A DNA stretch of 64,000 nucleotides from the IMG/VR virus record IMGVR_UViG_3300022851_000011, positions 1 to 64,000 of that record; one strand, given 5' to 3'. A model generated the notes under the pieces. It saw nothing but the letters and a program-made list of their open reading frames with translations. It was not told where the DNA came from and ran no database searches. Made by a program: the position numbers and the translations under genes. Position 1 is the first letter of the stretch, and each line of letters opens with the position of its first letter. The DNA comes from an uncultured virus (IMG/VR IMGVR_UViG_3300022851_000011) (lineage: Duplodnaviria; Heunggongvirae; Uroviricota; Caudoviricetes). This document shows positions 1,119 through 9,291 of this stretch, in pieces.

Positions 1119-2036
1119 TCAATATGTTTTTTTGATATTTCCAAGAGTTTGACCAGCACGTTGTGTGTAAAATTCTCCGGGCTGCGTGAATTCCAATATG
1201 GATATATTTGGTTCAATATCAGTTGTACTAATATTATCAAATCCTAGCCCATAAACCAAAGGCTCAATGTAATCACGTGTATTGAATAATCTATATTTTT
1301 TAAAGATAGTGTTATCAAGACTCGATTTCAGCAAACAATTATTATAGCTCATAATAACTCGTCCATCAGGTCGAAGAAGTTTTTTAAATTCGGTTAAGTA
1401 TATTTTAATAACATCAAGCGGCAATCTTTCGAAAAATCCAAAACTAAAAATAAGACCCATTTGCCCAACTGGCAATGATCTAAAGTCCACGTCGCCGTGG
1501 GCGTGATATGTGCGCAATCGTCGCTGATACGCATCGTTGAACTTGTTTTTCGTATTAATAAGAGACTCAGAATGCTTATCAACGATATACAAAGGATCAA
1601 GCCCCACCAATTTATCCGTAAAATGATTTATGCCGGGACTTAATTCCATACCGGGATACTGCCATTTGATAGCAAGATTTATTTTTCCTTCTATTATTTC
1701 TTTTGCAGCAACGGGTAAATGCAAATCTGTGTAATATTGGTTGATATGTGCATAGTCGTCAAACTTCATTTCGCTATCATAATAACGATAACTTTGCTGA
1801 ATAAACTCTATCTCATATTTTCGTATTTCTTCTTGAAATTTCTTATCTAATTTTTTTACTGTTCTGCGACCAATGATATGTTGCATTTCAAGTAAGTCTT
1901 TGGCTAAATCTTCACCATTTCGAATAGTGGATGCGATACTGGAATAACTACTCAACGTTTCCGATAACGGTGCATAGTCAATCCGTTTAAATTCATCGTA
2001 TTTCTTAACTAAATCCCAATATTTGTTAGCATCCAT
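1119..2036 (-). CDS. class I SAM-dependent methyltransferase-like protein
   Basis: C-terminal GMELSPG...LIFSFGFFE...LLRPDGRVIMSY pattern; ATAAATA late-promoter motif upstream. Confidence 0.5.
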   Translation of the reverse strand: MDANKYWDLVKKYDEFKRIDYAPLSETLSSYSSIASTIRNGEDLAKDLLEMQHIIGRRTVKKLDKKFQEEIRKYEIEFIQQSYRYYDSEMKFDDYAHINQYYTDLHLPVAAKEIIEGKINLAIKWQYPGMELSPGINHFTDKLVGLDPLYIVDKHSESLINTKNKFNDAYQRRLRTYHAHGDVDFRSLPVGQMGLIFSFGFFERLPLDVIKIYLTEFKKLLRPDGRVIMSYNNCLLKSSLDNTIFKKYRLFNTRDYIEPLVYGLGFDNISTTDIEPNISILEFTQPGEFYTQRAGQTLGNIKKTY

Positions 2037-2060
2037 ATACCTATTTATGTGTGTATATTA

Positions 2061-3050
2061 CTATACATCAAATAGTGTATTAAAAGTCGAAGTAACGTCT
2101 GTTTTAGTATCCAAATCCCACTTCATAACACCAAGCAAGTTTTTAATTTTTTGATCCACAATAGTTGCAAGCATTAACTCGTTATCAAACGGCAAATCCT
2201 TAAACCAGTCTGGAATATGTGGTTCATCAATCGGATACCCGATGCTCGTATATCCAAGCGGATTATTCTTTAACTTACACACAATAGTCTTTTGACCGTC
2301 TTGAATATCCATTGAATAGTTATCAGAATAGAACTTTTTTAACTTATTCCAATGAATAGCTGCCGATACGTGACCGGGAATCATTACGCCTTTCATGCCC
2401 TTATTTTCATACATCTTGGTGTACTTGGTAAGGTTGTTCACACGTTTTGGCGTACCTTTTTCCCAAGGCGGACGTTCTACAAACTCTTTTTTGAAGTCAA
2501 AAATCTTACCAATGATTTCATCTTCTTCTTTGTCTGTTAACACATCGATAAGGATTTCCATAAGAAATTCTTGCATATACCCCGGCGTATCCGAACGCTT
2601 CAAGTCCAAGCCCATAGCTTTGACTTTGCCCTCTTTGCCATCAACATCACGGCGTGTTCCTTCGTCGTCATAAATCATAAGACCATACCGCTTCTTCTTT
2701 ATGAACAATCCTTTTGTTGCGATAAGTTCTCGGCCACCTTCAATGATTTCGCCCATATGTTGCGGACAGTTAAATGCTTTCTTCATAAACGGAGGAAACG
2801 ATTCATTTACGGCTTCCGACACCTGATCGTATACTTCGGTGCAGATTTTTTTCGACCATTCCATTTCACCATTATTAACCGCATCTTCGATAACTGGCCA
2901 CATTGAAAAATACACGCTGTTATGAACGAGAATGTTGTTGCCGAAGAACCATGGATGCTCTTCATTCTTCATGCCTATGTCATAGACATATTCATCATCA
3001 AAGTTGTCTAACTGTTTGACAGATTTTACTTTAGCTTTTTTAACTTCCAT
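2061..3050 (-). CDS. family B DNA polymerase fragment C: C-intein (aa 1-44) followed by palm/thumb
   Basis: Begins with intein blocks F/G (YVYDIG...NILVHN/S), then SVYF, KKRYG and KAMGLDLKRSDTP PolB motifs. Confidence 0.93.
   Translation of the reverse strand: MEVKKAKVKSVKQLDNFDDEYVYDIGMKNEEHPWFFGNNILVHNSVYFSMWPVIEDAVNNGEMEWSKKICTEVYDQVSEAVNESFPPFMKKAFNCPQHMGEIIEGGRELIATKGLFIKKKRYGLMIYDDEGTRRDVDGKEGKVKAMGLDLKRSDTPGYMQEFLMEILIDVLTDKEEDEIIGKIFDFKKEFVERPPWEKGTPKRVNNLTKYTKMYENKGMKGVMIPGHVSAAIHWNKLKKFYSDNYSMDIQDGQKTIVCKLKNNPLGYTSIGYPIDEPHIPDWFKDLPFDNELMLATIVDQKIKNLLGVMKWDLDTKTDVTSTFNTLFDV
2919..3050 (-). mobile_element. C-terminal half of a naturally split intein (44 aa)
   Basis: Own ATG; ends His-Asn followed by Ser(+1). 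Confidence 0.9.
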
Positions 3051-3158
3051 TCCGCCATTCCTTTACTCGTTGTATAATAGTATATTGGTCGTGATACCAA
3101 TCATTTTCCCAGATAACAAATACCTCGTATCCATTATTGGTAGCATATGATGAAGACC
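3051..3158 (-). pseudogene. C-terminal remnant of a Vsr-like homing endonuclease between the split-intein halves
   Basis: Startless minus frame reads YATNNGYEVFVIWENDWYHDQYTIIQRVKEW, matching the G-Y/W-x-V-x-x-I-W-E-x-D tail of Vsr-like nucleases. Confidence 0.65.
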
Positions 3159-4112
3159 TTATTCAGTAGTAGTAATAAGTAAATCATCCTTCAATATATC
3201 TCGTGGTTTTATTTCCATCAATACGCCATCTCTCTCAACCATAACTGAGTGATCGCCAGTTACACGAATGGTATTACCATATTGATCCTCAATTTCCCAT
3301 TGTTCTTTAGATACCTTATGCCTGTAGATATAATTGATGTGCCCGTAATACGCTTTGCCTTCTTCCGGGTTATACGAAAGAACCTTCAAATCATCGTTAG
3401 CACTATATTCCTTTGTATCATCCTTGGCATCATTCCAATAACGCTGCCCTCGGTTGAACAATTCTTCTACGGTAAGCTCACCCCAATTGGTCTTGTGTAT
3501 GGTTTCGGCAAATTCTGAGTCTGTGTCGCCATACACAATACTTTTTCCAGTATGATCGTATTCACCCGCCAGTGATTGATTCACGTATGCTGACATATGC
3601 TTTGCAATACACCGACCAGTTAGTGTGGTTGACTGTCCGATATCAAAGACGTAGAAACGACAATGCTTATTCAATACAGCACCATACACATTTATATTCC
3701 ACATAAGTCGTTAGTTTATGTGCGTTCTCTCATGAACTGCTGTATGTCGCCATACAGATTAGACTATATCACCAACCTTGAAGGTTGCTCCCCGTTTCGT
3801 ATCACTTGATACTACTGCTTTCGCATAGTCGTTGAACCTTCCCTTACGGGCTTGGCTGCGGATTGTCTCGGTGAGAGTTCCCCGCAGTTAGAGGAGTTTT
3901 TCATTATATATTACTATATAAAGTCGCAATATTTACGAATTCAAGTTGATCTTTTTGACCAACTGCCGCTTATCCCGGAATGCTACTGCACCCCTATCTT
4001 TGTTTTCAATCTTGCCGTTTCTTACAACCAAATCGTTTTCTCTCATCACTTGTTCTAACTTTTCAGTTTCGTTATTGCTGATGAGGTCTTGGATTGTAGA
4101 GACTAAATCCAT
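3159..4112 (-). CDS. family B DNA polymerase fragment B (exons 4112-3935 and 3688-3159): motif B, YGDTD and N-intein
   Basis: ATG at 4112 with AGGAGA RBS; exon 1 ends DKRQLVKKINLNS; splicing restores NSLYGAVLN; continues to YGDTD and the N-intein. Confidence 0.9.
3162..3518 (-). mobile_element. N-terminal half of a naturally split intein (119 aa)
   Basis: Starts at Ser after YGDTD; block B TGDHS; ends at a stop codon. Confidence 0.9.
3689..3934 (-). ncRNA. group I self-splicing intron (246 nt, no internal ORF)
   Basis: 5' exon UCGU pairs with GCGA (U-G at the splice site); P/Q/R/S-like elements AACUGCGGGGAA, AAUCCGCAGCC, GUUCAACGACUA, GAUAUAGUC; terminal G at 3689; removal restores motif B in frame. 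Confidence 0.92.
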
Positions 4113-4430
4113 TCAATTCTCCTATCTCTGTGAGTTTATATTTGGCAACACCTAAATCTTTTAGGCATTTCCCGTGATATTCACCGAAAAAGTTTTTCCT
4201 ATCTTCACGCATATTGTGATGAGGTTTAGGAAAAGACATTTCTATATCATCCACGTATTTTCTTGGAATATCTATTTGATTCTCTTGTAATAATGATATC
4301 ATATTTTTGCCGCCAATAGCAATATAATCTTTATACTTATAGCACTTTATATTTTTAACAGAATGCCCGTCATAACGGTAATGGTGACTTTCAACTTCAT
4401 TCTCTTTTAGAAACTCATATTGTTTGGTTT
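4113..4430 (-). pseudogene. decayed AT-rich ORF between polymerase fragments A and B (possible endonuclease remnant)
   Basis: The frame of ORF 4072-4302 stays open upstream (YEFLKENEVESHHYRYDGH...) without an upstream start codon. Confidence 0.35.
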
Positions 4431-4450
4431 ATTTAGGACAAAAGACGAGA

Positions 4451-6094
4451 TTAGTCGTCTATCAAATCCTTTCCAAGTTTAGACATAATATCATTAGGTA
4501 CTTCTATGGTAGAATCATCAATAACCGCCGCTGCCTTCTTCTTGGCTTGTAGTTCTTGGCGTTCTGCGTACCATTTTTCAAGTATGCCGGGAATGATGCC
4601 TTGCTTATTATACTCAAATACTGTGCCGTTACCGCTTACTACCCATTTTTCACCACCATGGAAAATAATATCGTTAATTTCCTTGCCAGTATGTGTGGTT
4701 TGCTTGCCATCTGCCCATTGTACTTTGAGTGGTGTGGTATCATCTTTATCATCCATAAAGGAATATTCAAGTGTACCAAATAACCCTTCCCATGCTCCTG
4801 CAAACGACTTGCCTTCAGCCATTCGTTTTTCAATAAGCGGACGTGTATGTGTAGGCAATAACTGTGCTACAAATGTCTCGGGACTCATATTCAATGCACG
4901 AATAGCCGATGGATATAGTGAGTTAATATCGATAGCACCTACCCATTTATGTGTGCCTTTCTTCGGATGCGCCACATAAGCACCAGCCGCACGGTGATCT
5001 TCGTCGTCGCCATAATGAACCTTATTAGGCACAACCATATCAAGTGAATGCGCATAGTTGATAAGGGCTTGGTCAGTAACACCAACGGCACCCATAGCTG
5101 CCGCAATAAGCACTGTATTATCGTGTGCGATTTCATTGCATAGATCAATAAACTGTAGCTTATCATCAAGTTGCTTTAATAGCAAAGTATCCTGACGGTT
5201 GTATTCAATGAACTTATAAAAGTCGTCATTGTATAACTTATCTAGCGATCCTGCGTATTGGATTTTACGGGCACCTAGTTCATATTCAGAAATGGTATCC
5301 AACGAATACGAATGCATTTCGTGATAGGTATATTGCTGATACAATGATAGGCTATCCAAGTGAATACGTCCACGTAAATCATACGTCTTTTGCATCTTGC
5401 CATATTTTTCGTATTCACGTTCTTTTGGGAGTTGGTCAAGTAAACAGAAACGGCGTGTGTCATTCTTACTAAGAACCCGTGCCGTTCGGTTAACCATATA
5501 CGGAATATCGTAGCCTTCACTGTTCCAACCCGTAAGCACATCGGCTTCTTGGATTAAGTCAAGGAACGTTTCAATCATATCCCCTTCGTTACTGAATAGG
5601 TATGTGTTGGGGAAATCCATCATTGCCTCGGCTTCTTCAAGCGTCAGTGTATTTGGTGGAATAGCTAACGTAACCATTTCATCCATCCACGAACAATATA
5701 ATGAGATAGCCGTTACTTTATTGAACGGGTCATCGGGTGGCGCAAAACCAAGCGTAGGCGAAAAGTCAACCTCAATATCGAAGAAGCACACGTTTAGCTT
5801 GGGCGACATCTGCCCAATATAGTGACGTTCAAGTGTCTTATTAACAATATTTATATCACTTTCCCATACACGTGTCTGACTACGACTTTTCAACTCACGA
5901 TGAAATTCCTTTTTACTATCAGATTCGAATTTGGAAACAGGATTACGAAAAATAGTATTATACTTTCCAGCTGGATCGTCATAATAAAACGTCCATTTAC
6001 ACGGATGTTCGGTTACTATTCGTTTACCATTCAGTCTTTCAACTACCTTAACAACGTTATTTCGTTTATCGTAGATTGCGTCAACGTAACTCAA
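4451..6094 (-). CDS. family B DNA polymerase fragment A (3'-5' exonuclease, motif A, first fingers helix)
   Basis: FDIEVD, GWNSEGYDIPY, YNRQD, DINSLYPS, GIIPGILEKWYAERQ; ends at a stop codon. Confidence 0.95.
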   Translation of the reverse strand: MSYVDAIYDKRNNVVKVVERLNGKRIVTEHPCKWTFYYDDPAGKYNTIFRNPVSKFESDSKKEFHRELKSRSQTRVWESDINIVNKTLERHYIGQMSPKLNVCFFDIEVDFSPTLGFAPPDDPFNKVTAISLYCSWMDEMVTLAIPPNTLTLEEAEAMMDFPNTYLFSNEGDMIETFLDLIQEADVLTGWNSEGYDIPYMVNRTARVLSKNDTRRFCLLDQLPKEREYEKYGKMQKTYDLRGRIHLDSLSLYQQYTYHEMHSYSLDTISEYELGARKIQYAGSLDKLYNDDFYKFIEYNRQDTLLLKQLDDKLQFIDLCNEIAHDNTVLIAAAMGAVGVTDQALINYAHSLDMVVPNKVHYGDDEDHRAAGAYVAHPKKGTHKWVGAIDINSLYPSAIRALNMSPETFVAQLLPTHTRPLIEKRMAEGKSFAGAWEGLFGTLEYSFMDDKDDTTPLKVQWADGKQTTHTGKEINDIIFHGGEKWVVSGNGTVFEYNKQGIIPGILEKWYAERQELQAKKKAAAVIDDSTIEVPNDIMSKLGKDLIDD

Positions 6095-6103
6095 TATTCA
6101 CTC

Positions 6104-6382
6104 CTAAAATGCTGCATTCAATAAGCCCACGATGTTCATTAAGGAATACCATCCCATAAGAACAAACATCCACGAGCTTTTTCTCATATACATTGCTGCC
6201 ATTAATAGCACACTACCCACAAGATAGCAGATAAAGATGATTAGCAATGGTGGTGTTGGGGTTAGAAACGCCAGTAAGAAACTGGCAATAACGCTTACTA
6301 TTGTGGCAACGGCTTCACACCAAAACAATGGCTTATTGTCGTGCCACGTTTCTACCCAAAACGCCCATATATTTTTAATCAT
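6104..6382 (-). CDS. small membrane protein
   Basis: Three hydrophobic segments in 92 aa. Confidence 0.65.
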   Translation of the reverse strand: MIKNIWAFWVETWHDNKPLFWCEAVATIVSVIASFLLAFLTPTPPLLIIFICYLVGSVLLMAAMYMRKSSWMFVLMGWYSLMNIVGLLNAAF

Positions 6383-6838: not shown

Positions 6839-7671
6839 ATGTCAAACGAAGTAACTCTATCTGCGAGTATTCGCAGTAACCTAAACTCACTACAAAATAC
6901 AACTAACCTCTTAGAAATGACACAAGGACGCCTTTCGTCAGGAAAGAAAGTCAACAATGTTATTGATAATCCATCATCATTCTTTATTGCACGTGGTTTA
7001 AGCAGTCGGCATCCGATCTATTGACGGTAAAAGAAAACCTAGCAAACAACATCGTTACTGTACAAACAGCTACTGATGCTCTAGAGTCCATTGAAGGTCT
7101 GCTAAAGCAAGCAAAAGCTGTTGCTGAATCTGCTAAAGCATCTTCAAGCGTGGCAGAACGTACTACATTCTCAGCACAATATGATGGTATTCTTGACCAG
7201 ATCAACAACACCAGTGCAGACGCTACATTCAATGGTGTTGGACTACTGAAAGCTACGCCAGATAGCTTGACCGTGAAGCTAAACGAAACCACAACAACAT
7301 TGACGGTTGCGGGTATTGCTTCTGATCAAGTTGGTCTTGCAGTAACCGACGCTGGTGATTGGGAAAACGCCACCATAGCAACTGGTACGACCGCCATTGA
7401 TGTTGATATCGCAAAGATTGATGCAGCATTGTCAACTGTTCGTACATCAGCTAAGACGCTTGGTACAAATGCAGCGTTGATTCAGTCACGTGAAGAGTTC
7501 ACAGCTAATATGATTAACAGCCTCAAAGAAGGCGCTGGTAACTTGGTCAACGCAGACCTAAACGAAGAATCAGCTAACTTGCTAGCTCTTCAGACACGCC
7601 AAGCACTAGCTAACAACTCGTTGAGTCTTGCTGTTCAATCTGAACAAGCAATCCTTAGTCTTTTTAGATAA
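6839..7671 (+). CDS. flagellin (about 277 aa, alphaproteobacterial type); one-base frameshift near 7008
   Basis: N-terminal VTLSASIRSNLNSLQNT...QGRLSSGKKVN; C-terminal LVNADLNEESANLLALQTRQALANNSLSLA...ILSLFR; adding one base to AGT CG GCA joins the ORFs as SRASDLLTVK. Confidence 0.9.
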
Positions 7672-8036: not shown

Positions 8037-8239
8037 ACTAAGATATTAATTTTTAAACCACGAGTCACATTGATGGAACTTACGTCTGTTGGACCGTAGG
8101 TTTCATCATATGATTGGCGTTTTTCTATGCTTGCCAATTCATATTCACGTGCCATTGCACTACGACTACGATTTTCATAAGCCATCGCCGCACCACGGCT
8201 GTCAAGGTTAATGTTAACACTTGATGGTAATATTTTCAT
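8033..8239 (-). CDS. small hypothetical protein
   Basis: Overlaps the stop of the upstream gene; C-terminus RGLKINILV. Confidence 0.55.
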   Translation of the reverse strand: MKILPSSVNINLDSRGAAMAYENRSRSAMAREYELASIEKRQSYDETYGPTDVSSINVTRGLKINILV

Positions 8240-9291
8240 TTTACACCTTTTGCTGCTGCAATGTTGGAAATCCAGTTCTTACGTGGTTCCCTTGTGCTTT
8301 CAAAATGGAATTCCCGCCCACGGATACGTGAATATCCTTCTTCGGCAGTACCCATCGTGAACTTTCCAAGGTTGATGTTCTCGCCGCTATTCAATAACAA
8401 ATGAACTTCATTGCCACCAGCGGGTTTGAATAGAACACCATCTTGATCATACTGTACCATAAGTTTCTTAACAAGACCTTTAAGATTACCACTATCATTC
8501 TCGTTTCCGACGATGAATACGGTATCTTCTTCAACTTTTTGTTCTTCGGGTGTGCCTTGATTTTCAATCCAGCCGCCGTCGATAAACGTATATCCATACC
8601 CGGCTTTCTTTACTTGTCCAGCAAGTTGGCGGTTACGGCGTAGATTTTCGTGACGATTTTCCTGTCCGCCACGGAACGCAGTAATAAACGCTACGGGACG
8701 ATTTGGGTTATCAAGATGCTGGAAAATACGACCAAGTGACGATTCGCCAATCATGTCATGAACTGATTCAACCACACTTAACGTAATAAGTTCACCGCCA
8801 TCGTCTTCAATGATAAATGCTTCTTTTAGCTGACCATCTGCAATCTTGATAAGTTGACCGATATCTTTTGTTTCTGCTTCATCGCCCTTAGAAAGTTTAA
8901 CATCAGCGAAGTTACCAGCCTGTTTGCCGATATCGGTACGTTCGGTATGATACTTTGCCCATTTAATTATATTATCATACGTAACGTTAGTCATACGATT
9001 GATATTCATTGCCCAGAAATACTGTTTGCGATATAATCGAGTTCTAATCCACCCCCTTTTGACAAGTGCCAAAATGATTTGTTCACGTGCTTTGCCCTCA
9101 GTGCCCATAGGCTCATCAAAGTCGGCGTAAAGTTTATCAATATATTCCTTGGTTAGCCCGAACTTCTCAGGACGTTCAATAACTGTCTGAATATGCATTT
9201 GACCAGCAATATCCAATATCTCACCACGTGGTGAAATCCAGTATGCCATTCCCGGCGCTAAGTTTGGGTTTGCTATTTCATTTAATCTCAT
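8236..9291 (-). CDS. two-domain putative virion internal protein
   Basis: MRLNE leader; domain 1 YWISPRG...GWIR; domain 2 after IGESS (FITAFRG...GGWIEN). Confidence 0.6.
   Translation of the reverse strand: MRLNEIANPNLAPGMAYWISPRGEILDIAGQMHIQTVIERPEKFGLTKEYIDKLYADFDEPMGTEGKAREQIILALVKRGWIRTRLYRKQYFWAMNINRMTNVTYDNIIKWAKYHTERTDIGKQAGNFADVKLSKGDEAETKDIGQLIKIADGQLKEAFIIEDDGGELITLSVVESVHDMIGESSLGRIFQHLDNPNRPVAFITAFRGGQENRHENLRRNRQLAGQVKKAGYGYTFIDGGWIENQGTPEEQKVEEDTVFIVGNENDSGNLKGLVKKLMVQYDQDGVLFKPAGGNEVHLLLNSGENINLGKFTMGTAEEGYSRIRGREFHFESTREPRKNWISNIAAAKGVK

Follow-up and report, generated by a model that had tools for sequence, protein, structure and literature searches.

The replicative DNA polymerase gene of an uncultured jumbo phage, known from contigs of up to 230 kb in salt-lake metagenomes, is broken in three places within the stretch of DNA analysed here. 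This stretch, which we call the window, comprises the first 64 kb (64,000 nt) of the 121,548-nt IMG/VR record IMGVR_UViG_3300022851_000011, whose completeness is estimated at 34%. The gene encodes a gp43-type family B polymerase (PolB) and is laid out on the minus strand as three cistrons, A, B and C, interrupted by a break at the fingers tip between A and B, by a group I intron within motif B and by a split intein at motif C. An active enzyme very probably arises by RNA splicing, intein trans-splicing and non-covalent assembly of A with the joined BC chain, which we consider the best explanation of the layout. An earlier note on this DNA had proposed that all three processes are needed together; the mechanism stands, on evidence that is comparative throughout, but the novelty it implied does not, since Aeromonas phage Aes508 has the same combination. 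The features of the locus are as follows (positions in the window).

4451..6094, minus: cistron A, 547 amino acids (aa), TTG start after AGGAG, stop 4453-4451; encodes the PolB N-terminal domain, 3'-5' exonuclease, palm motif A, the first fingers helix and a 27-aa tail
4443..4460, minus: terminator-like hairpin with the stop codon of A in its loop; from a consensus scan, a lead only
4072..4428, minus: remnant of a GIY-YIG homing-endonuclease gene, 5'-truncated, 118 codons from stop to stop, in the 338-nt A/B gap
3935..4112, minus: B exon 1, 59 codons, ATG 4112 with AGGAGA five bases ahead, last exon base U3935; encodes half of the tip module, the second fingers helix and the first half of motif B (KKINLNS)
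3689..3934, minus: group I intron, 246 nt, no open reading frame (ORF), last base G3689
3519..3688, minus: extein part of B exon 2, from the rest of motif B (LYGAVLN...) to the motif C sequence YGDTD; Pfam PF00136
3159..3518, minus: N-intein, 119 aa from Ser1, blocks A, N2, B (TGDHSVMV) and N4; stop 3161-3159
3040..3144, minus: remnant of a Vsr-like homing-endonuclease gene, the last ~34 codons, in the 108-nt spacer 3158-3051
2919..3050, minus: C-intein, 44 aa, ATG 3050 after AAGGAA, blocks F and G, ending in ILVHN
2061..2918, minus: C extein, 285 aa from Ser+1 (SVYF...), rest of the palm and the thumb; stop 2063-2061

The three breaks had been read from the sequence in the earlier note, and all four coding pieces were found where it had placed them, as minus-strand ORFs of 547 aa (6094-4451), 59 aa (4112-3933), 181 aa (3704-3159) and 329 aa (3050-2061). 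That note had also remarked that the 59-codon exon was missing from the ORF track; with 59 aa it is just too short for the ORF lister, whose default minimum is 60 aa. Cistron A matched Pfam PF03104 (E 1e-21) and PF00136 (E 9e-11), PHROG 262 and 2062, both labelled DNA polymerase, and RB69-type PolB structures (E 4e-34). The exon-2 ORF carries PolB motifs up to YGDTD (PF00136, E 1.7e-6) followed by the N-terminal part of an intein (PF14890, E 4e-8), and the C extein matched PHROG 1918 (E 4e-50) and residues 699-862 of RB69 PolB (E 9e-12). A Shine-Dalgarno-like sequence is positioned 5-7 nt upstream of each of the three cistron starts, and none precedes the internal ATG at 3704. A promoter and terminator scan of the region gave counts at the level of shuffled sequence (15 vs 16.0 and 2 vs 2.6), and megablast of positions 2000-6200 against GenBank phages returned no match.

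We then joined the pieces in silico, exon 1 up to U3935 with exon 2 from U3688, and the N-extein up to YGDTD with the C-extein from SVYF. The joined product of 948 aa (547 + 116 + 285) could be aligned end to end with five intact homologues, those of the IMG/VR loci L008, L009, L011 and L012 and of phage Phosso, and was colinear with all of them, which is the comparison that the earlier note had called for. The closest distinct relatives, L008 and L014, encode a single unbroken PolB of 887 aa with 66-73% aa identity, and both junctions of the joined product, KKINLNSLYGA and YGDTDSVYF, are identical to those of L008. The exonuclease domain and the motifs DINSLYPS (A), KKINLNS+LYG (B) and YGDTD+S (C) fall into one colinear product, as in gp43-type family B enzymes. 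Exonuclease and polymerase domains were recognised by Pfam, PHROGs and PDB searches, and a loss of parts of the PolB fold, which the earlier note had named as a finding that would speak against its reading, was not seen.

The assignment of a group I intron to the interior of motif B agrees with the earlier note and is supported by Rfam, whose family RF00028 matched minus-strand positions 3952-3740 with 105.8 bits (gathering score 50; E 1.7e-27). Joining U3935 to U3688 gives NS-L-YG, and among the length-preserving cuts only this one, with the intron ending at G3689, lies after a U, gives the intron a terminal G and leaves the frame free of a stop. We compared eight homologous introns at the same site, that of the window and those of seven loci representing other phages. 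In all eight the upstream exon ends in ...CGU and the intron begins with A(A/G), and the intron ends in G before an exon beginning U(G/A) UAY GG. The RNAalifold consensus of the eight has 71 pairs, with compensatory changes in 37. Exon UCGU pairs with GCGA in P1, placing a U.G wobble at the 5' splice site in 8/8 introns, and P1 of L039 shows a compensatory GCGU/GCGC, one UA>GC swap adjoining the U.G. An in-frame UAA or UAG across the 5' splice site is conserved among the homologous introns; in the window it is the UAA at 3935-3933 that closes the ORF of B exon 1. A conserved 3' hairpin with a UAACGAC loop ends the intron, and hairpin and core are common to the intron of Aes508. The covariance-model score, the U.G pair in P1, the terminal G and the covariation are together those of a group I intron.

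Analysis of the A/B break showed that A does stop after ERQELQAKKK and that B restarts at ATG 4112 behind AGGAGA, as described before, with the addition that A continues for 27 residues past ...LQAKKK before its stop. B starts 40 residues ahead of ...AFRDKRQ, so that the break is located between ...WYAERQELQAKKK with its tail and the head preceding ...RDKRQLVKKINLNS. The extra residues of the A tail and B head correspond to a fingers-tip insertion that is absent from L008, L009, L011 and L012 and forms one continuous stretch in Phosso, PA5oct and several IMG/VR phages. This location of the break inside the tip insertion had been missed by the earlier note. Its statement that no intein motifs flank the break was borne out by Pfam, which recognised no intein domain in either the tail of A or the head of B. 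The locus has the sequence features of a split gp43A/gp43B: a break at the tip of the fingers, a separate start for B and no intein where the gene is broken.

The last ~13 residues of A (DIMSKLGKDLIDD; 4454-4492, minus) resemble the first ~13 of B (DLVSTIQDLISN; 4074-4112, minus), and both segments align to one helix in unsplit homologues. A like resemblance is seen in L029 and L033 (EDIKKY... vs IDIKKL...). These similarities may represent a short duplication left by the splitting event.

A split intein at YGDTD/S, the third interruption of the earlier note, was confirmed by PF14890, which matched both halves (positions 118-155, E 0.008, for the C-intein), and by a phmmer match of the N-intein to PDB 9hth, the crystallised Aes PolB intein (E 5e-12). 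The blocks SEFAETIHKTNW, TVEELFNR, NTIRVTGDHSVMV, LMEIKPRDILKDDLLI, VYDIGMKNEEHPWFF and GNNILVHN/S all match the six listed for the PolB intein of phage MIJ3 in the excerpt of PMC6892783. Both halves are without cysteine, and Ser1, the block B Thr and His, the terminal His-Asn and Ser+1 are all kept, in line with a class 1 split intein. That the halves are separate polypeptides is evident from the N-intein stop (3161-3159), the 108-nt spacer closed by stops in every frame and the new start at 3050. When the N-intein was used as a single-sequence query against IMG/VR, no phage other than this one was recovered. A biochemical precedent is provided by the Aes123 PolB1 intein, which trans-splices in vitro, the wild type with an efficiency of only ~30% according to the excerpt of PMC11923092.

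Further inteins were noted in the course of this work. The metagenomic protein P0010 (307 aa) is a PolB fragment with two inteins just two residues apart, a contiguous mini-intein at YGD/TD and then a split N-intein at TD/S; the shifted YGD/S insertion site is also found in Salicola phage SCTP-2, L039, L092 and L098. In the record of the window itself, a UDP-glucose/GDP-mannose dehydrogenase gene at ~75,300-77,800 (L107) is broken by another split intein, with a 271-aa nuclease-like ORF (weak Phage_endo_I match) between the halves, and represents an intact 'fractured gene' in the same phage. A third split intein breaks the ribonucleotide reductase large subunit at ~119,500-121,548 (L108), where the two cistrons overlap by 17 nt and no endonuclease gene lies between them.

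From the homology of the parts we infer self-splicing, trans-splicing and subunit assembly, in the following way. Three independent selfish elements would have colonised the gene, and their homing endonucleases would later have decayed. Cistron A would be translated alone into its 547-aa product. The B transcript would self-splice, releasing the 246-nt intron and joining U3935 to U3688, which would create the Leu codon of NSLYG and take out the UAA that otherwise ends B after 59 codons. Spliced B would encode a 235-aa precursor of a 116-aa extein and the 119-aa N-intein, and cistron C the 44-aa C-intein followed by the 285-aa extein. The cysteine-less halves (Ser1, TxxH, His-Asn, Ser+1) are predicted to associate and trans-splice YGDTD to SVYF, yielding a BC chain of 401 aa with motif C intact. 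A and BC would then pair non-covalently through the two antiparallel fingers helices and the tip module, the halves of which flank the break.

The triple arrangement as such is not new and is already known from Aeromonas phages. Gene 43 of Aes508 (JN377894), with which we grouped its relatives Aes516, AS-gz and Aes123, is interrupted three times in the order seen here, first by a fingers-tip split into gp43A and gp43B, then by an intron in motif B and last by a split intein. Its annotation runs from gp43A through a GIY-YIG gene, gp43B-1 (holding both group I intron and N-intein) and a VSR-like ORF to gp43B-2 (holding the C-intein), and the intein is likewise cysteine-less and inserted after the motif C sequence YxDTD. 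However, Aes508 is a T4-like phage of ~160 kb and not a jumbo phage, the PolB pieces are only ~27-29% identical, and its tip insertion is unrelated in sequence. Its intron is located 9 nt further downstream, after NSLYGA and one base, in our own reading of the sequence rather than by an annotated join. Both endonuclease genes are intact in Aes508, whereas both are truncated in the window.

Partial layouts are known from several other systems. Phages 25 and 44RR, as described in the excerpts of PMC2988022 and PMC2677866 that cite Petrov 2010, share with the window a gene 43 split by intercistronic sequence into 43A and 43B, a free-standing seg-type GIY-YIG gene and an ORF-less 43B intron; these excerpts report no intein, and the endonuclease gene of phage 25 is intact, unlike that of the window. 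In phage 25 the two split products, 43A and 43B, purify together as an active enzyme (excerpt of PMC2988022, citing Petrov 2010). A split PolB intein has been published for the Pseudomonas jumbo phage MIJ3 (excerpt of PMC6892783). The MIJ3/PA5oct intein belongs to the family and site of the window intein (YGDTD/S ... HN/S) and to the same jumbo-phage PolB clade, with 47% identity over exon 2 and the N-intein and a near-identical block F/G in PA5oct, but has a 560-aa endonuclease ORF between its halves, in genes with neither fingers split nor intron. The PolB mini-intein of Salicola phage SCTP-2 is homologous as well (51% identity over exon 2 and the N-intein, near-identical block F/G); in contrast to the window intein it forms one contiguous, cis-splicing unit, its insertion site comes two residues earlier (YGD/S ... 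KN/TDS) and it has Lys for the penultimate His. In Nanoarchaeum equitans a natural split intein also joins a family B polymerase, but this one is archaeal, with halves at distant loci and a single interruption (PMC2677866).

The spacers themselves proved informative. Each holds the 3' end of a decayed homing-endonuclease gene, a point missed by the earlier note. The 118-codon frame in the A/B gap corresponds to residues 199-315 of the 315-aa protein P0008 (88% identical in an alignment of 99% of the ORF, E 4e-65), and its 3' end overlaps the start of B by 41 nt. P0008 is intact, with a GIY-YIG catalytic domain (PF01541, residues 4-91) and NUMOD3 (98-117), both of which are deleted in the window; the remnant accordingly holds no GIY-YIG catalytic domain of its own. 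Searches with the 118-codon ORF alone gave only chance-level tblastn matches to phages (E >= 0.2), nothing usable in Pfam and PHROGs, and unnamed clusters only in the ESM Atlas (about 0.90). BLASTP against the Seg-like protein of Aes508 gave E 8.4 for the remnant, from which the shared catalytic domain is gone, and intact P0008 does match that protein (E 2e-7).

The second remnant was found by tblastn of Vsr-like proteins against the 108-nt intein spacer only. Matches came from L039 (53% identity, E 2e-11), L101 (E 6e-8), L098 (E 2e-6) and Aes508_035 (E 3e-4), always from the extreme C-terminus of intact intein-associated ORFs, that of L039 being a 290-aa ORF between the intein halves. BLASTP (E 7e-5) and Pfam MTES_1575 (positions 68-94 of 96, E 0.014) agreed. 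The stop of the remnant, at 3042-3040, overlaps the C-intein start. A resemblance by eye of a 40-aa spacer ORF to the Hef-like ORF of PA5oct was dropped (E 5.2). Vsr-like remnants in intein spacers elsewhere vary, with ~62 residues in L029 and almost nothing in L033 and L059.

Both endonuclease genes have been eroded from the 5' side, and in each case the 3' end, where the ribosome-binding site and start of the next cistron lie, is kept; the retained ends presumably reflect selection. A GIY-YIG gene would formerly have occupied the A/B gap, with 118 of 315 codons left, and a Vsr-like gene the position between the intein halves, with ~34 codons left. Dassa et al. (2009) (PMC2677866) described split inteins flanking Vsr-like endonuclease genes and predicted later loss of the endonuclease gene. 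Like these fractured genes, the window has adjacent split-intein halves and the 3' end of a Vsr-like gene abutting the C-terminal gene part, but in place of an intact endonuclease it has only the ~34 codons. The locus represents the stage expected after that loss, its halves remaining neighbours, and is a decayed form of a fractured gene rather than a full member.

In two triple-interrupted loci, L098 (4489-5484) and L101 (4506-5495), a Vsr-like ORF lies in the A/B gap on the strand opposite the polymerase. The record of the window also contains, at 67903-68160, a GIY-YIG catalytic domain in a 158-aa open frame of the same phage.

How far can the proposed pathway be trusted against other explanations of the breaks? 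Sequencing or assembly artefacts carry a practically negligible probability. The evidence does come from metagenomic contigs of modest depth (about 4-6x word depth), but three IMG/VR contigs concur, L006 (230 kb) and L007 (142 kb) being 99.97-99.985% identical over 6501 nt, with their sole difference inside the gene region at position 3054, in L006. Contigs from several runs, none of them flagged as the source, extend across these stops and spacers with 0-3 other letters, none at the stops (records 10 and 13 of run X5 cover 2480-3953 and 4401-5612, and records 22 and 23 of run X6 cover 3085-4430 and 4438-5774). Errors at the stops 4451 or 3159, named in the earlier note as grounds for giving up its reading, were not seen. 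In addition, the related phage L018 shares the A stop, B start and intron, and a recognisable mobile element is present at each break. It is also most improbable that the locus is a decaying pseudogene of a defective or dead-end phage whose pieces are never assembled into an enzyme. Both associated endonuclease genes are clearly decayed, as such a history would have it; against this, all PolB motifs, intein blocks and the intron core are intact, each cistron has kept its ribosome-binding site and start, Aeromonas phages that are cultured and viable have this layout too, and no second PolB was noticed in the window, the record being only ~34% complete. The window DNA is moreover present in 24 listed runs, among them many from salt lakes, and in 9 of these half or more of the sampled words were recovered.

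Two further alternatives concern single junctions. A and B could be joined in another way, for example by translational bypassing, of which phage T4 gene 60 is an example, or by an unrecognised splicing element in the 338-nt gap, and the hairpin enclosing the A stop codon (identical in L018) would fit such a device. We rate this still lower than the pseudogene, as the gap has stops in all frames, B is in a different frame with its own AGGAGA and ATG, the endonuclease remnant accounts for the gap, Rfam found no RNA family in it, and the gaps of L033 and L059 measure 59 and 9 nt with separate starts. Homologous split enzymes also function as two subunits (excerpt of PMC2988022). The intein halves could, on the other hand, tie B and C together without splicing, so that the active enzyme is a three-chain non-covalent complex retaining the intein. 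Some natural split inteins are poor splicers in vitro (excerpt of PMC11923092), but the catalytic residues Ser1, Thr/His, penultimate His, terminal Asn and Ser+1 are kept as in the active Aes intein, and a 163-aa intein between the YGDTD aspartates and the next strand would presumably occupy the active site; we regard this outcome as very unlikely.

A number of observations nevertheless weigh against the combination of RNA splicing, trans-splicing and assembly. No RNA run is among the listed runs holding this DNA. The intein is only ~29% identical to the biochemically tested Aes intein, itself ~30% efficient in vitro in the account excerpted from PMC11923092. For the fingers, an AlphaFold model of this region in the unsplit homologue L043 (213 aa, 14-row alignment) locates the break where a long loop modelled with low confidence (residues ~70-100) gives way to a helix-helix-hairpin module (residues 101-150, predicted local distance difference test score (pLDDT) 74-81), and is of low confidence overall (mean pLDDT 63, predicted template modelling score 0.50). 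P10 of the intron, as read by eye, comprises just 4 pairs, and in the alignment given by Rfam P1 is set in another register. That register, with the 5' splice site after U3943, was rejected, as its sole in-frame product is 2 residues too long and breaks the KxxxNSxYG spacing; it is also disfavoured by the eight-intron consensus, which pairs UCGU with GCGA.

Variation was seen in individual runs. In X8, a variant has many substitutions in the C-intein region 2850-3010 and small deletions near the N-intein stop, at 3150-3169, which points to variation between strains at the intein locus. In X8 and X10, contig cover was missing from some bins. Apparent skips with joints at 4606/4764 and 4930/5187 came from diverged contigs with short sides, which we read as other organisms.

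Comparison with L018, a related phage with a split PolB and the intron but no intein, pointed to lateral movement of part of the locus. Window positions 4564-3672 differ from L018 by 7 substitutions in 893 nt and one 79-nt indel (99% identity), whereas the flanking parts reach only 69.4% identity (A), 70.3% (remainder of exon 2) and 74.4% (C). The ~0.9-kb block starts with the codons for ...QELQAKKK and continues through the A tail, stop, endonuclease remnant, B head, exon 1 and intron to end after 18 nt of exon 2. This alignment indicates a recent lateral transfer of a gene-splitting cassette, and the block pattern has the signature expected of recent recombination or homing with short exon co-conversion. 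The GIY-YIG remnant of L018 is longer (residues 169-315) and has the same left junction just past the A stop, the window having a further deletion of 79 nt. The exchange probably took place after the death of the endonuclease gene, because the window and L018 share the truncation junction. Mobilisation of the cassette would then have been in trans, by an intact relative; a sibling enzyme such as P0008, 88% identical to the remnant, presumably would cut cassette-free alleles during co-infection, and intron-free alleles of other phages are present in the same runs (loose contig ends at 3940). More tentatively, and with somewhat more doubt than confidence, we suggest that the split itself is a transmissible trait, the cassette moving between ~70%-identical jumbo phages despite truncation of its endonuclease, presumably via an intact sibling enzyme.

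To place the locus among its relatives, the best 80 of 229 stretches from a profile scan of IMG/VR were considered; 2 are this phage, and the other 78 loci were scored. A split intein was present in 34 and a contiguous one in 7, with 5 mis-scored and 32 unscored owing to a missing anchor or a contig end. An intron-sized insert (at least 200 nt) was present in 7, absent in 62 and unscored in 9, and the fingers break present in 10, absent in 59 and unscored in 9. A short intein spacer free of an endonuclease gene, like that of the window, was found in 6/34 split-intein loci. Rfam recognised introns in 9/13 loci sent to it, four of them among the unscored loci. The triple interruption was verified in at least five loci (L029, L033, L059, L098 and L101), of which L033 and L059 resemble the window in being without both endonuclease genes; L030-L032 end before C. 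A protein search gave 51 clusters of short B-like proteins, and in the subset examined some extend unbroken from the tip-module half into the N-intein, while others begin immediately ahead of YG, where a piece downstream of an intron would begin. GenBank also holds entries named 'intein-containing split DNA polymerase precursor' from other Aeromonas, Tenacibaculum and Campylobacter phages. A search of the open-access literature found no description of the triple arrangement in a jumbo phage, nor of the decayed state. What is new here is the truncated endonuclease remnants in both spacers and the 99%-identical cassette.

Two neighbouring genes deserve mention. One, a 216-aa plus-strand ORF at 7021-7671, resembles the helical C-terminal region of flagellin (PF00700, E 1.7e-7), an unusual match for a phage. 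The other, a 351-aa minus-strand ORF at 8236-9291, contains a domain of the S-adenosylmethionine lyase family (PF23780, E 1e-9) and is a candidate for an anti-restriction function.

Gene callers fragment this essential gene and skip its 59-codon exon, and knowledge of the layout restores the PolB annotation here and, by the same rescue, in many related metagenomic contigs. The intein adds one more natural cysteine-less split intein, a class of interest to protein engineering. Taken together, these results extend the triple-interruption arrangement of Aeromonas phages to a distant jumbo-phage clade and capture a late stage of the homing cycle, in which both endonuclease genes are eroded from the 5' side while intron, intein and split persist. 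They also provide a clean natural case of a gene-splitting cassette swapped between diverged phages.

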